Positions 9,017-14,083 of a stretch of DNA of 45,236 nucleotides are shown here, one piece after another; the first letter of the stretch is position 1; the number at the start of each line of letters is the position of its first letter. The translations under genes and the position numbers were made by a program. The notes beneath the pieces are model-generated. The model made no database searches and was not told the origin of the DNA. It saw only the letters and a list, made by a program, of their open reading frames with translations. Source of the DNA: Acidobacteriaceae bacterium (lineage in GTDB: Bacteria > Acidobacteriota > Terriglobia > Terriglobales > Acidobacteriaceae); NCBI GenBank assembly GCA_043765355.1, contig JAYUJG010000224.1, forward strand, positions 1 to 45,236, given 5' to 3'.

Positions 9017-10246
9017 CTATTGCCGATTTGAAAGTGCGGCCGTGACGCGCGCCGAATCCGATTGTCGCCCACAACATGGCCCCGGCGGAATCGCAGCGCC
9101 GTGCGGGCAAGTAAGCGGATGGTTCAGGAAAGTGCAGATCTTGTCGGTAGCTTCGGGTGAGAGGATGTGCTCGAATTTGCAGGCCTGCTGCTCGATTTCC
9201 GTTTCGCTGTCCATGGCGAACGAATCGGTGAAGAGTCGCTCAGCCAGCCGATGACGCCGAATGATATCCGCCGCGCGCTGGTGTCCACGCGGCGTGAGTC
9301 CGATAATCAGAGAGCCGTCCCCCGTCGAAAAGCCAGCAGGTTTCAACGCGTCGTGGCACGGATTCACGAAAGGTTTGTGGTCGTGCGGTTCCGTAGGATG
9401 AGGCCGCGTCGTCACCAAACCCATGGCGGCCATTTTCTCCACTGCAATCGATACCGGCAGCGCGCCGTGGACTTCCATCCGCTCCATCTCGGCGATTTCG
9501 CCATGCTCTTCGAGGGCGAATAGTTCTTCCAGCACCTCATCAAATTGCTCGTCGTCGGCCATCGCAAAGACTTCCTGGGCGGCAATTTTGCCGTGATGCA
9601 ATTCGATGCGGCGATCCGCCAGACGCGCCACTACGGGATCGTGCGTGACCATGACGATGGTGCGTCCCTGCTGGTGAAGCTCTCGAAGCAGGCGCAAAAC
9701 GATTTCTTCGTTGGCGGCGTCGAGGTTGCCGGTCGGCTCGTCGGCGAGCACGATCTTCGGATCGTTGATCAAAGCTCGCGCAATGCAGGCGCGCTGCTGC
9801 TCGCCCCCGGAGAGCTGCGATGGAAGGTGTCCGGCGCGATCTTTCAGGCCGACGCGATCCAGTGCTTCGAGAGCTTCCTTTTCGTCGGTCATGCTGTGGA
9901 AGTATTGAGCCAGCATGACGTTCTCGACGGCGGTCAGATACGAAATCATGTGAAAATGTTGAAATATAAATCCAACCGTTTCGGCGCGAACGTGATTGAG
10001 GTCTGAGGCGCTGAGGTGCGCGACGTTCTTTCCATCGAGCCAAATCTCGCCGCTGGTGGGCCGATCCAGGCATCCGATGAGATTGACCATCGTACTCTTG
10101 CCCGAGCCCGAGGGGCCCATCATCGCGACCCACTCACCCGGCGCGATGGAAACACAAATGTCGTCGAGCGCCTGAATCAGGCTGAAGCCGCCGCTGCTTT
10201 CTTCGCGCGCGGGATAACTCTTCGTGACATTCTTAAGCTTGATCAT
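9017..10246 (-). CDS. ABC transporter ATP-binding protein (MacB/LolD-type) fused to a C-terminal DtxR/IdeR-like metal-sensor module
   Basis: 409 aa. The NBD carries Walker A GPSGSGKST, signature LSGGEQQR, Walker B IVLADEPT and H-loop VTHD. From about aa 233 it reads LEELFALEEHG...LPVSIAVEKMAAMGLV...LTPRGHQRAADIIRRHRLAERLFTD...ACKFEHILSPEATDKICTFLNHPLTCPHGAAIP. This parallels DtxR MRKHRLAERLLTD...ACRWEHVMSDEV. Confidence 0.9.
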   Translation of the reverse strand: MIKLKNVTKSYPAREESSGGFSLIQALDDICVSIAPGEWVAMMGPSGSGKSTMVNLIGCLDRPTSGEIWLDGKNVAHLSASDLNHVRAETVGFIFQHFHMISYLTAVENVMLAQYFHSMTDEKEALEALDRVGLKDRAGHLPSQLSGGEQQRACIARALINDPKIVLADEPTGNLDAANEEIVLRLLRELHQQGRTIVMVTHDPVVARLADRRIELHHGKIAAQEVFAMADDEQFDEVLEELFALEEHGEIAEMERMEVHGALPVSIAVEKMAAMGLVTTRPHPTEPHDHKPFVNPCHDALKPAGFSTGDGSLIIGLTPRGHQRAADIIRRHRLAERLFTDSFAMDSETEIEQQACKFEHILSPEATDKICTFLNHPLTCPHGAAIPPGPCCGRQSDSARVTAALSNRQ

Positions 10247-10293
10247 CGTTAGTGTTCCCGAATATTCCCGAACAATTGCTACCGTATCCGCCG

Positions 10294-11493: not shown

Positions 11494-12821
11494 GCTTCAC
11501 CTCGCAACGCAAACACGGGATCGTACCTTACGGCGCGTCGAATTGCGGAAACGCTTCCGGCGAAAGTCACAATTACCGCGACCGCCAGGATGATCGGGAA
11601 AAGCACAGGCTCAATAGAAATTGTCGAATTGAAAATCGAGCGGCCAATCTGGTGGGCAAGGAACGTTCCCAAGGAGAAGCCAACCGTGCCGCCGGTCAGT
11701 GCAAGCAACAGCGCCTCGGCAAAAAAAATTGAAAAGACGGCAAAGTCGCCCGCACCAAGAGCTTTCATCAGACCCACTTCGACGCGACGCTCAAAGATCG
11801 CCGTAGCCATGGCCGCGGAAACGGCCAAGGCGGACGCAAAGAGCGCGGCCAGCGTAATCAGCAGCATGAGCCCTTTGATGCGCGACAAAACCGTGCCTTC
11901 ATTCTGCGCGACTTGCCGAATCTGCTCCGCGTGTGAATGCGGGATGACTTCCTGTAACTGATACGCGATCGACTGCGCATACGGAGAGCAATACCATCGG
12001 TCGTAAACCTCGGGGCTCATCGTCTTCGGATCGCGCGTGGCGAACGCGTCTTGCGGCTTGGTGAGCGCGCTGACGTAGACGCGGCGGACTGCGCCAGGCC
12101 TGCCGAGAATCTGCTGCGCGAGAGCAAGAGGTGCAACAATTTCGTCGTCTTCTGCGCCGCCGCTCGAGAGGATGCCAGATACCGCGAGCGGATGACCCGA
12201 CACCTCGAGCGTGTCTCCTGGCCTCATGCTTAACTTCGCAGCCAGTCGTTCTCCTACCAGGATGTCTTGCGAGTTGTCGTCTGGCCAGCCGCAACTGCCC
12301 GCCGGGGCTGCGATTTGCGCGGAACGGGGCGGAGCCCCGTCACCACATGTGCTCCTCACCTTCCACCATGGGTGCGTAGTCTTGACGCCCGTGGTGAAAT
12401 CTTCTTTGCCGAAATGGACTGGCTTGCTGAAGTAGGTCCCCAGCAGCGTCACCTCTTCAGTATTGGCATCACCACCACTGCCGACCCTTACTGTGACCGG
12501 CAGCATCGGCGAGAAGCCGACGATATTGTTGTGCCAGAAGGTGCCGCGAATTTTCGGCAGATCGGCCTCGTTTAGAAAAGCGCCGTCGCTTGGGGGCTTG
12601 AGGTTGATGCCGCCGATTTCAACGTCAAGCGTGTCTTCCTGCGGAGTGACAATCAGATTCGCGCCGTAGCTGCGCAGTTCGCGGTTGATCTTGTCGCCGA
12701 TGTTGGTAGCCACGGCGATCATGGCGGTGGCGACCGCTACTCCCAACGTGATCGCAACGCCGGCAAGAATCTTGCGGCGCGCTTGATGGCGAAACGATTC
12801 GTAGACGAGGCGCGGAAACAT
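11490..12821 (-). CDS. FtsX/MacB-type ABC transporter permease (first of a pair)
   Basis: I set the start at ATG 12821 (MFPRLVYESFRHQARRKILAGVAITLG...), which overlaps the TAA of the upstream gene by 1 nt. The C-terminal FtsX block is LITLAALFASALAVSAAMATAIFERRVEVGLMKALGAG.... Confidence 0.85.
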   Translation of the reverse strand: MFPRLVYESFRHQARRKILAGVAITLGVAVATAMIAVATNIGDKINRELRSYGANLIVTPQEDTLDVEIGGINLKPPSDGAFLNEADLPKIRGTFWHNNIVGFSPMLPVTVRVGSGGDANTEEVTLLGTYFSKPVHFGKEDFTTGVKTTHPWWKVRSTCGDGAPPRSAQIAAPAGSCGWPDDNSQDILVGERLAAKLSMRPGDTLEVSGHPLAVSGILSSGGAEDDEIVAPLALAQQILGRPGAVRRVYVSALTKPQDAFATRDPKTMSPEVYDRWYCSPYAQSIAYQLQEVIPHSHAEQIRQVAQNEGTVLSRIKGLMLLITLAALFASALAVSAAMATAIFERRVEVGLMKALGAGDFAVFSIFFAEALLLALTGGTVGFSLGTFLAHQIGRSIFNSTISIEPVLFPIILAVAVIVTFAGSVSAIRRAVRYDPVFALRGEA

Positions 12822-14083
12822 TATTTCTGCTCGAAGTAGCGTCTGCCGGCCGCGACGTCTAATTCCGACACGATGACGGAGTCGTCGGTTACCTGCGCCT
12901 TCAGAGGCACCGGATTGCATCCGCCCGGCATTCCGACCGATTGCAGGTTAATGGGAGAAGCGCAGTTTTTGCAGATGACTCCGTTAGAACCTTTATAAAA
13001 ACCCGCGCCCCCGCAGATTTCACAGGCGTCAAAGAGAACCGCGATTTTTCCGTCCGGTTTTTGGTAGAGCCAGAAACGCACTTCGATTCCGCCTTCTTTG
13101 GCTTCGAAGCGGTGCAGTTCGCCATCGTAAACCTGCTTCAGCGGGATCGACACTTTGCCGTCCACAAAGCTCACTTCGGTGGCCGGCGAAAGCGCGCTGG
13201 CACTCTTCTCGTAGATAAAGCTGGCCGTGACCATCACGATAAAGATGAACGAGAAGACGTAAATCGAAGCCATCCAAAGACGCTCGCGGCGGGCGGTCCA
13301 GAGCGCTTTGCGACGCGCTGCGCCTGAGTCGGGCAACTCGACGGGCTGGCGGCTCTTCATCTCGAACAGCACCATCAACGCCGCCAGCGCCAGGATGGTG
13401 ACAAAGAAGAAAAGTTCGTTGCGGACAATCGGCCCGATGATGGCCATCTCCTGCCGGGAAGAGGGGAGCACTCCATTTTCGGACAGCTCGTGCAAGCCGG
13501 AAATCACAAGCTGCGCCGCTACCAGAAAAAGAATTGCGGTCGTGACCTTAAAGAATTTCTGCAGATTGATCTTGACGCTGCCCTTGACGAACATCACGCC
13601 GAATAGCACCGCGACGATCACGCCCAGCAGGGTCCCCGTGAAACTCATCAACTCACTAGAGTTTAACGTCACCGCAGACAAAATCAGAACCGTCTCAACG
13701 CCCTCGCGCAGCACCATCAGGAAGACAAACAGAAAGAGCCCGATCCAGTCATTTCCGGAGGCACCGCTACCGGCAAACAATCCGACCTTAGTCTCGATTT
13801 CGCCCTTGAGCTTGCGTCCAGTCCTCATCATGAAGACGATCATGGTAACGACAAACACCGCCGCGACCAGCATGACCCAGCCTTCGAAAACGTCCTGGTT
13901 CAGGTTGAGGCGCGAGAGCACAACCGCGACGACGATTGATCCAGCAAAAGCCGTACCCAGCGCGGCATAGACCGCTTTGCGCAGATCGTTGCGGCCGATC
14001 TTAGCCAGATAAGCCAGCGTGATGCCGATGATGAGAGCGGCCTCGACGCCTTCGCGGAGCGTGATGATGAATGCCTGAAGCAT
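12821..14083 (-). CDS. Ftr1/EfeU-family high-affinity iron permease fused to a C-terminal DUF2318-like Cys-rich domain
   Basis: 420 aa with two REXXE iron-permease motifs (TLREGVEAALI and VLREGVETVLI) in a polytopic N-terminal half. An extra TM follows, then FDACEICGGAGFYKGSNGVICKNCASPINLQSVGMPGGCNPVPL (CxxC...CxxC...GGCNP), characteristic of DUF2318. Confidence 0.9.
   Translation of the reverse strand: MLQAFIITLREGVEAALIIGITLAYLAKIGRNDLRKAVYAALGTAFAGSIVVAVVLSRLNLNQDVFEGWVMLVAAVFVVTMIVFMMRTGRKLKGEIETKVGLFAGSGASGNDWIGLFLFVFLMVLREGVETVLILSAVTLNSSELMSFTGTLLGVIVAVLFGVMFVKGSVKINLQKFFKVTTAILFLVAAQLVISGLHELSENGVLPSSRQEMAIIGPIVRNELFFFVTILALAALMVLFEMKSRQPVELPDSGAARRKALWTARRERLWMASIYVFSFIFIVMVTASFIYEKSASALSPATEVSFVDGKVSIPLKQVYDGELHRFEAKEGGIEVRFWLYQKPDGKIAVLFDACEICGGAGFYKGSNGVICKNCASPINLQSVGMPGGCNPVPLKAQVTDDSVIVSELDVAAGRRYFEQK

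Follow-up and report, generated by a model that had tools for sequence, protein, structure and literature searches.

A widespread Fet-type operon of Terriglobales that lacks nearby FetM and P19, retains both permease motifs in FetA, and carries a DtxR-like module on its ATPase

Four closely spaced minus-strand genes at 9017-14083 of contig JAYUJG010000224.1 from an Acidobacteriaceae bacterium (GCA_043765355.1; the 45,236 nucleotides (nt) analysed are called the window) encode a variant of the Fet system, an iron-uptake, virulence-associated cluster of many bacteria, among them Campylobacter, uropathogenic E. coli, and Yersinia. From promoter-proximal to distal they are gene 1, coding for a FetA-family protein of 420 amino acids (aa) (12821-14083), genes 2 and 3, coding for FetB-like and FetC-like MacB-type permeases (11490-12821 and 10294-11493), and gene 4, coding for a FetD-like ATP-binding cassette (ABC) ATPase with a DtxR/IdeR-like module (9017-10246). 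We propose, with a probability of about 0.55, that the operon is a Fet machine derivative without FetM and P19, that is, an iron-repressed, P19-independent Ftr1-type uptake system with an ATPase gated by cytosolic metal; metal, direction of transport, and gating are all things that we infer. What sets the operon apart is the retention of the permease motifs together with the absence of fetM and fetP nearby. It is a widespread Fet variant that has been annotated automatically, and it is without mention in two papers on Fet systems (PMC10783030; PMC6083913), although this literature check was narrow and a description elsewhere is possible. According to one of those papers, what FetA and the FetBCD ABC module do in the Fet system is unknown (PMC10783030).

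Searches with Pfam profiles bore out every domain call that an initial annotation of this DNA had made for the four proteins. Protein 1 begins with an FTR1 domain (aa 1-204; E 1.8e-38, 132.9 bits against a cut-off of 25.3) and ends with an FtrD-like/DUF2318 domain, PF10080 (aa 318-417, nt 12833-13132; E 5.9e-29), as the initial annotation had supposed in describing a permease with two REXXE motifs joined to DUF2318. The motif REGVE occurs at aa 10-14 (nt 14042-14056) and again at aa 126-130 (nt 13694-13708), and the C-terminal domain has the cysteine motifs CEIC at 354, CKNC at 371, and GGCNP at 387-391 (C389). Between the two domains lie a basic cytoplasmic linker and an eighth transmembrane (TM) helix, TM8, which follows the seven helices of the FTR1 domain. 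An AlphaFold2 (AF2) model built on a 56-sequence alignment (predicted local distance difference test, pLDDT, 89.4; predicted template modelling score, pTM, 0.81) contains the seven TM helices, of which helices 1 and 4 (residues 2-28 and 111-139) hold the REGVE motifs, a long helix at 255-294 corresponding to TM8, and a β-rich domain at 301-406. Protein 1 has in common with the Ftr1/EfeU/FetM permeases (OFeT; Fet3-Ftr1, EfeUOB, FtrABCD) that REXXE motifs lie in TM1 and TM4 of a 7-TM FTR1 domain; it falls under the NCBIfam equivalog cut-off for EfeU (155.8 versus 255). Ftr1 reportedly has REXLE motifs and a topology with the N-terminus outside and the C-terminus inside. Because of that topology and of TM8, the DUF2318 domain of protein 1 should be periplasmic. 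The same placement has been predicted for the DUF2318 domain of FetA (Liu et al.). When the model was compared with the PDB using Foldseek, nothing was found at E < 0.1 and no FTR1-family structure was among the matches; the β-domain bears a weak resemblance to Rieske [2Fe-2S] domains (probability 0.8-0.94, E ≥ 0.2), which can be taken only as a hint.

The arrangement of protein 1 is that of FetA. In C. jejuni, FetA has 8 TM helices plus periplasmic DUF2318 and YHS domains and is followed by the FetB/FetC permeases, the FetD ATPase, and the thioredoxins FetE/FetF (PMC10783030; PMC6083913), while in pUTI89 the gene order is fetM-fetP-fetA-fetB-fetC-fetD-fetE-fetF. Protein 1 and pUTI89 FetA share 34% identity across the cytoplasmic linker, TM8, and DUF2318, and the operon has the A-B-C-D order, in support of the likeness to C. 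jejuni cj1658-cj1665 noted in the initial annotation. Measured against the FetMP-FetABCDEF systems as a group (cj1658-cj1665 / CJJ81176_1649-1656; E. coli F11 and pUTI89; Y. pestis), the window operon has homologous FetA, FetB, FetC, and FetD in the same order, the same FetA cysteine pattern (CxxC-x13-CxxC-x14/15-C), and, as described below, a Fur-type operator upstream (Fur-box-like in the window). In contrast, it is without fetM, fetP (P19), the fetE/fetF thioredoxin genes, or an FMN-binding seventh gene; protein 1 keeps both REGxE motifs, which E. coli and Fusobacterium FetA do not have, and gives no Pfam match to the YHS domain; and the FetD homologue carries a DtxR-like metal-binding module.

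An exhaustive phmmer search found 4898 relatives of protein 1 among cluster representatives at 50% identity. Motifs were tallied in the best 150 of these, 72 of them full length, and protein 1 aligned with FetA-like proteins over the full length in a single stretch at 27-53% identity. Two REGxE motifs at the canonical positions plus CxxC/CxxC were present in 61/72 full-length relatives; seven of the 72 were without REXXE, and yet aligned end to end at 27-34% identity, and four had no DUF2318 CxxC motifs. Some REXXE-intact relatives also have the YHS domain; P0254, for instance, joins FTR1, FtrD-like, and YHS domains and so matches the architecture of FetA exactly, with a permease that can still be recognised. 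The REXXE-less members keep an N-terminal "MLxALxLTL..GxEAAL" pattern in the multiple alignment, having lost the Arg-Glu pair of the motif, and match the Pfam FTR1 profile below threshold (E 3e-4 to 0.9). By HHalign their N-domains match a set of three stand-alone FTR1 proteins (E. coli FetM, an FTR1-family protein of Cupriavidus pMOL30, and a Hydrogenophaga FTR1) at 97.8% (E 1.2e-12) and the REXXE-intact fused N-domains at 99.9% (E 1.8e-32). These comparisons argue that the FetA-like N-domain without REXXE is a degenerate but recognisable FTR1 homologue, that the combination of FTR1-like domain, TM8, and DUF2318 is an old property of the FetA family rather than a lineage-specific fusion, and that gene 1 is the FetA version that retained the permease motifs. 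A recent FetM::FetA fusion was considered as the origin of gene 1 and rejected because of the full-length collinearity with FetA-like proteins. The initial annotation's "Ftr1::DUF2318 fusion" is therefore right insofar as both domains lie in one polypeptide, but it is not a novel fusion, given that canonical FetA already has 8 TM helices and DUF2318 (PMC10783030). A neighbour-joining tree of N-domains gave 0/100 bootstrap support to a clade of fused plus REXXE-less sequences and did not show whether the REXXE-intact form is ancestral or derived, partly because the four relatives without DUF2318 CxxC motifs fall among the fused sequences.

Both fused proteins have thousands of close homologues (83-100% identity), which occur in Terriglobales, Acidobacteriaceae, and Ca. 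Koribacter; scanning a single genome for each species turned up relatives in at least 587 species-level genomes. Loci were compared in the best 80 of these, all of them Terriglobales or Ca. Sulfotelmatobacter metagenome-assembled genomes with 72-89% identity. The order fusion-FetB-FetC-ATPase was kept in 80/80 loci, and the operon is therefore beyond chance; the DtxR-like extension was missing only at contig ends (L034, L049, L083). The initial annotation had presented the locus as a minimal fused version; it is not a rare one, in view of the at least 587 genomes and of the approximately 61 best-scoring 50%-identity clusters with REGxE and cysteine motifs. Its statement that P19 and thioredoxins are absent from the cluster was, on the other hand, upheld: tblastn found no P19 (three queries), FetE/F, Fur, or second FTR1 in the 45-kb window, where EfeO/EfeB and thioredoxin genes were likewise not found, and none of P19, FetE/F, Fur, or a second FTR1 lay within ±10 kb in any of the 80 related loci. 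Compared with OFeT permeases, then, the operon has no ferroxidase, cupredoxin, P19, or EfeO/EfeB partner gene in the 45-kb window, and has a tethered Cys-rich domain and a MacB-type ABC module in the partner's place. More distant relatives show a related pattern. No FTR1 or P19 neighbour stood beside the REXXE-intact proteins of seven further lineages (L010, L012, L014, L015, L097, L098, L099; the L098 contig starts at the gene, leaving only its downstream side visible). Conversely, each of the three REXXE-less proteins that could be placed on contigs (L006, L008, L009) directly follows P19 and is itself followed by FetB-FetC and a plain ATPase of approximately 220 aa; a separate FTR1 gene lies upstream of P19 in L008 and L009, and in L006 the contig breaks off within the gene at that position. 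The order fetM-fetP-fetA-B-C-D is common to all 33 published clusters (PMC6083913). Across eight lineages, retention of both REGxE motifs is correlated with absence of fetMP.

Proteins 2 and 3 are, by their profile matches, the FetB/FetC pair of MacB-type permeases. Protein 2 matches FtsX (E 7e-14) and MacB_PCD (E 7e-12), both above cut-off, and holds its position in 80/80 loci, while protein 3 matches FtsX (E 7e-16) with MacB_PCD below cut-off (23.3 versus 27 bits), in line with the MacB-type nature suggested for both in the initial annotation. They share with MacB, LolCDE, FtsEX, and HrtBA (type VII) a plan of N-terminal TM helix, large periplasmic domain, and C-terminal FtsX 3-TM bundle. 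The window system differs from these type VII transporters in that its partner is an Ftr1-type permease, not a TolC-linked adaptor, lipoprotein, or hydrolase, and in that its ATPase has an extra C-terminal metal-sensor module. One could suppose that this ABC module exports reductant or reducing power and so keeps the DUF2318 cysteines reduced, with iron entering through FTR1 and the DtxR-like domain tuning the supply. Richardson-Sanchez et al. put forward such a model for C. jejuni FetBCD-FetA-FetEF (PMC10783030), and the conserved CxxC pairs of DUF2318 and the faint Rieske resemblance of the β-domain fit it. Yet the thioredoxin or FMN-binding partners that it needs were found neither in the window nor in the 80 loci, and a role in redox supply seems distinctly improbable. 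To our knowledge, moreover, MacB-type permeases have no transmembrane substrate path.

The ATPase part of protein 4 (aa 1-225; ABC_tran E 1.8e-33) is nearest to MacB, LolD, and FtsE in NCBIfam. Further on, the protein matches Fe_dep_repr_C (PF02742) at aa 318-387 (nt 9086-9295; E 1.3e-23, 83.2 bits against a cut-off of 27), and a search of PDB sequences aligned residues 231-409 with IdeR/DtxR (E 4e-12, over residues ~39-136). The pairing of PF00005 with PF02742 recurs in all top 120 homologues. Equivalents of the ligands H79, E83, C102, E105, and H106 in the dimerisation/metal-binding domain of DtxR/IdeR/MntR are conserved (RRHRLAERL ... ACKFEH), which agrees with the metal-sensor domain that the initial annotation had placed on the ATPase. 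The module departs from DtxR/IdeR/MntR in being fused to an ABC ATPase, in lacking the SH3-like third domain, and in its winged helix. Pfam gave no match to the winged-helix domain PF01325 at E ≤ 0.01, and the local similarity to DtxR residues 14-58 amounted to no more than 0.4 bits; the winged-helix-like part (aa ~231-317) is degenerate and strongly acidic, with the DtxR DNA contacts Q43 and R50 and the basic helix-2 residues replaced. In its wing lies a 27-aa His/Cys-rich insert (RPHPxEPHDHKPFVNPCHD; aa 282-308) that is invariant in, and specific to, Terriglobales. An extra CPHG...PCC tail (CPHG...PPGxCC, aa 379-393) is invariant even in relatives of 43-53% identity. Either the insert or the tail could be an additional metal site. 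The ABC::DtxR fusion accompanies a REXXE-intact FetA in four lineages, namely the clade of the window and L010, L015, and L099. MetNI C2, ModBC, and MalK also have an extra dimerising ligand-binding domain after the nucleotide-binding domain, and the logic proposed for the window ATPase is alike, with feedback by the cytoplasmic product; the differences are that the domain here is of the DtxR/IdeR type, otherwise known in DNA-binding repressors, and that it belongs to a MacB-type transporter rather than to a type I importer.

Upstream of gene 1, the only promoter-like site in 8600-14900 is a σ70-type promoter (TTGACC, 18-nt spacer, TATTCT) at 14276-14305 on the minus strand, both hexamers of which are conserved in an alignment with four related loci (L017, L018, L022, L024). 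Seven nt downstream of its -10 hexamer is a 23-nt Fur-box-like palindrome, TTGAAATTGAAATTCATTTTCAA (14246-14268, minus strand), self-complementary at 20/23 positions. It is unique in the window, where none would be expected by chance (0). In 59/80 related genomes the exact 19-mer core is found a single time in each locus, upstream of the operon, and in approximately 72/80 there is a near-invariant 23-mer, even though the proteins are only 72-89% identical. Its arrangement is GAAATT-GAAATT-C-ATTTTC, with two direct hexamers, a spacer base, and an inverted hexamer; this is the layout of the classical E. coli Fur box, GATAAT-GATAAT-C-ATTATC. Fur genes adjoin distant relatives of the operon in L007, L015, and L099, together with hemP and an FMN-binding gene in L099. 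Given this conserved Fur-box-like operator and the Fur genes beside distant relatives, iron-responsive repression of the operon through TTGAAATTGAAATTCATTTTCAA is likely. A different 7-1-7 palindrome, TGAGA(C/G)TGAGTCTCA, i.e. TGAGA(C/G)T-G-AGTCTCA, is present in two distant REXXE-intact relatives, in L007 (~270-300) upstream of the Fur gene and in L015 (~625-655) between the Fur and fusion genes. Five genomes (L048, L065, L067, L073, L091) are without TTGAAATTGAAATTCATTTTCAA and have a repeated GTTGCAAC-type palindrome (e.g. TAGTTGCAACCGAGTTGCAAT) approximately 46-85 nt from the ATG; this replacement suggests that the regulator was swapped in their subclade.

Taken as a mechanism, the proposal would run as follows. 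Transcription would start at the σ70-like promoter, whose start region TTGAAATTGAAATTCATTTTCAA covers; under iron limitation the operator would be freed and the four proteins would assemble in the inner membrane. Iron would then pass through the FetA-like protein's own FTR1 domain, with the tethered Cys4(+1) DUF2318 domain as a periplasmic iron-handling or redox partner that replaces P19, Fet3, or EfeO. The FetBC-D module would carry no iron; ATP hydrolysis in the cytoplasm would instead move the periplasmic domains, and this movement would load, release, or reset the DUF2318/FTR1 site, like that of other MacB-type transporters. MacB is said to work by such mechanotransmission. When cytosolic Fe2+ (or Mn2+) rises, it would bind the pair of DtxR-like domains in the ATPase dimer and turn the motor off. 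This shut-off would be analogous to the trans-inhibition of MetNI and ModBC, which reportedly acts through C-terminal regulatory domains. In C. jejuni, mutants in fetA, fetB, fetC, and fetD have iron-dependent phenotypes (PMC10783030).

Several observations weigh against parts of this proposal, and the alternatives are best judged alongside them. The search for partners spanned the 45-kb window and ±10 kb of related loci, so that a P19/EfeO-type partner or FetM could be encoded elsewhere. In Fusobacterium vincentii (L002 7956-14787) a REXXE-less FetA-B-C-D cluster has no fetM/fetP within 8 kb; the complementarity between REXXE retention and fetMP is therefore not absolute by adjacency. This may be a second kind of FetMP-less layout, and FetA-FetB-FetC-FetD are followed there by an FMN-binding gene, a DUF4418 gene, and the gene of a third FtsX permease. 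Moreover, fetMP and fetABCDEF are parted by an intergenic region in C. jejuni (PMC10783030). All three points would suit a split system, in which the operon is the fetABCD half, FetM/P19, EfeO, or a cupredoxin is co-regulated from elsewhere, and the REGxE motifs serve in a heteromeric channel. We consider such a split unlikely, since P19 or a second FTR1 was nearby in 0/80 genomes, P19 was adjacent to every REXXE-less FetA examined in metagenomes (n=3; FTR1 called in 2/3), and the correlation of motif retention with fetMP absence extends over eight lineages. The FTR1 ancestry of canonical FetA is also less direct than that of the REXXE-less group. By HHalign, enterobacterial FetA matches that group at 80.6% (E 1.3e-5, in the second half of the membrane domain), and its N-domain compared directly with FTR1 profiles gave no significant match, also with a two-sequence profile; FTR1 ancestry of E. 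coli and C. jejuni FetA is hence only transitive.

The sensor module has its own difficulties. In protein 4, Glu stands at the equivalent of His98 and probably also at that of Met10, and in the L010 relative ACKFEH is replaced by AHQFDY. In three REXXE-intact lineages (L014, L097, L098) the ATPase is plain, and the sensor is therefore not essential to the system. The probably acidic equivalent of DtxR Met10, as in Mn sensors, is among the points that would fit a different substrate, be it Mn2+, Pb2+, Zn2+, or Cu, with an operator for a Mur/Zur-type Fur paralogue and the DtxR-like domain acting as an MntR-like Mn2+ sensor. The L014 and L097 relatives, both with a plain ATPase, have a gene for an ArsR-type regulator upstream, not Fur, and an FTR1-family gene beside cadR on pMOL30 (H3), which is presumably the lead-uptake gene PbrT, is among the homologues. 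A metal other than iron nevertheless seems quite unlikely to us: paired REGxE motifs are the signature by which Ftr1/EfeU/FetM bind iron, the equivalents of Cys102, Glu105, and His106 are those of the DtxR/IdeR type that senses Fe, distant relatives lie beside Fur and hemP genes, and the homologous C. jejuni genes are those with iron-dependent phenotypes. With respect to regulation, TTGAAATTGAAATTCATTTTCAA is only Fur-like, with 14/19 matches to the E. coli consensus, and a Fur gene was found within ±10 kb in 0/80 Terriglobales loci. DtxR/MntR-family operators can be AT-rich palindromes, and the metal-loaded module of protein 4 might accordingly bind TTGAAATTGAAATTCATTTTCAA itself and couple transport status to transcription. 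The AF2 model of gene 4 is poor overall (pLDDT 46; shallow alignment at 83-90% identity), and only the secondary structure of residues 231-330 was used; helices at 223-247 and 265-274 and a β-wing at 278-281/314-317 (pLDDT 70-89) would give such a transporter-repressor its winged-helix-like part, as would the slight similarity to DtxR residues 14-58. This idea is nonetheless highly improbable in view of the undetected Fe_dep_repress domain in Pfam, the acidic character of the region and its replaced DNA contacts, the co-occurrence of a Fur gene and a fused ATPase in L015 and L099, and the Fur-box architecture of the operator.

If the proposal of a FetM- and P19-less Fet derivative is right, an ABC ATPase with a DtxR-type sensor would offer a new route for feedback of cytosolic metal status onto a transporter. 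Since the membrane domain of FetA is an FTR1 homologue, FetA may act as a channel subunit rather than solely as a redox accessory. A four-gene version without nearby FetM, P19, and thioredoxins would define a minimal working core and offer a simpler target for reconstitution or cryo-electron microscopy, making the operon a useful minimal model for the Campylobacter/E. coli Fet system. A broader generalisation, which we hold tentatively and think rather doubtful, is that FetA-family proteins are Ftr1-type channels with a built-in periplasmic Cys-rich centre for metal or redox that work without a ferroxidase or P19 partner when intact, are driven or reset by a MacB-type module, and are stopped when cytosolic Fe2+ directly switches off the ATPase via a DtxR-derived domain. 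On that reading they would form a hitherto unrecognised class of ATP-coupled, product-gated Ftr1 importer, and canonical FetA of pathogens would, by extension, be a degenerate channel subunit paired with FetM. Few iron-related loci of Terriglobales from soil and peat are as conserved as the operon, and its conservation there, with relatives in so many genomes, makes it relevant to iron acquisition by abundant Acidobacteriota.

Direct reading of the sequence confirmed the four minus-strand open reading frames and the three junctions described in the initial annotation, and the neighbourhood comparison that it had called for returned the same operon in all 80 loci. At the junction of genes 1 and 2, the TAA at 12823-12821 and the ATG at 12821-12819 share nt 12821 (TAATG), and at that of genes 2 and 3 the GTG at 11493-11491 overlaps the TGA at 11492-11490 (GTGA). 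A Shine-Dalgarno-like GAGGTG lies immediately 5′ of this GTG. The start of gene 3 is ambiguous, with ATG 11382 as the alternative to GTG 11493, and the 37-codon extension from the GTG is weakly conserved among 6 close relatives. Genes 3 and 4 are separated by 47 nt (10247-10293), after which gene 4 begins with the ATG at 10246.

The leader of the operon is lengthened in the window genome by a specific insertion of approximately 140 nt (14088-14227, minus strand) that is absent from L017, L018, L022, and L024, where the operator is only 44-50 nt from the ATG. The insertion contains a hairpin resembling repetitive extragenic palindromic elements, GGCACGGCTGAAGCCGTGCC(CTTCCC), at 14143-14162, and may be a small repetitive or mobile element. 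Related hairpins, GGCAC...GTGCCCTTCCC, occur at 18398-18427 and 19281-19310 in two other intergenic regions. An Rfam search of 8600-14900 at E ≤ 0.1 gave no match, so that the leader has no riboswitch of a known kind. Upstream of the promoter (14410-14428, minus strand) is the perfect palindrome TGTAAAC-AGC-GTTTACA, and two more GTTTACA repeats (GTTTACAAAAGCCGTTTACAAG) are found at ~14105-14130 (minus strand) within the leader insertion; these sequences might serve as a binding site or mark where the inserted element ends.

The window is chromosomal, and in Pfam searches its remaining large open reading frames were housekeeping in content (among them DnaE, AccA, LpxD, Mur ligase, isocitrate dehydrogenase). 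Immediately upstream of the operon, and on its strand, is a gene for an SprT-like (zinc-metalloprotease-like) protein (14805-15779), which is upstream in 74/80 loci and is the sole broadly syntenic neighbour outside the operon. The next gene on the 3′ side is a convergent GH18 gene (7925-8653, plus strand), which is present in a single related locus (L022). It covers only profile positions 60-228 of 317 and has an arginine-rich, unconserved N-terminus, and may be truncated or have a mis-called start. Five kb downstream of the operon and unrelated to it, a second MacB_PCD + FtsX permease (2481-3737 and 3710-4177, both minus strand) is of the ADOP/MacB-like type common in Acidobacteriota and adjoins a gene for an AMP-binding enzyme. 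Additionally, inverted and direct intergenic repeats of CGACTAGCGACCAACGAC-like units are found at 16974-17060 and, approximately 10 kb away, at 26951-27073.

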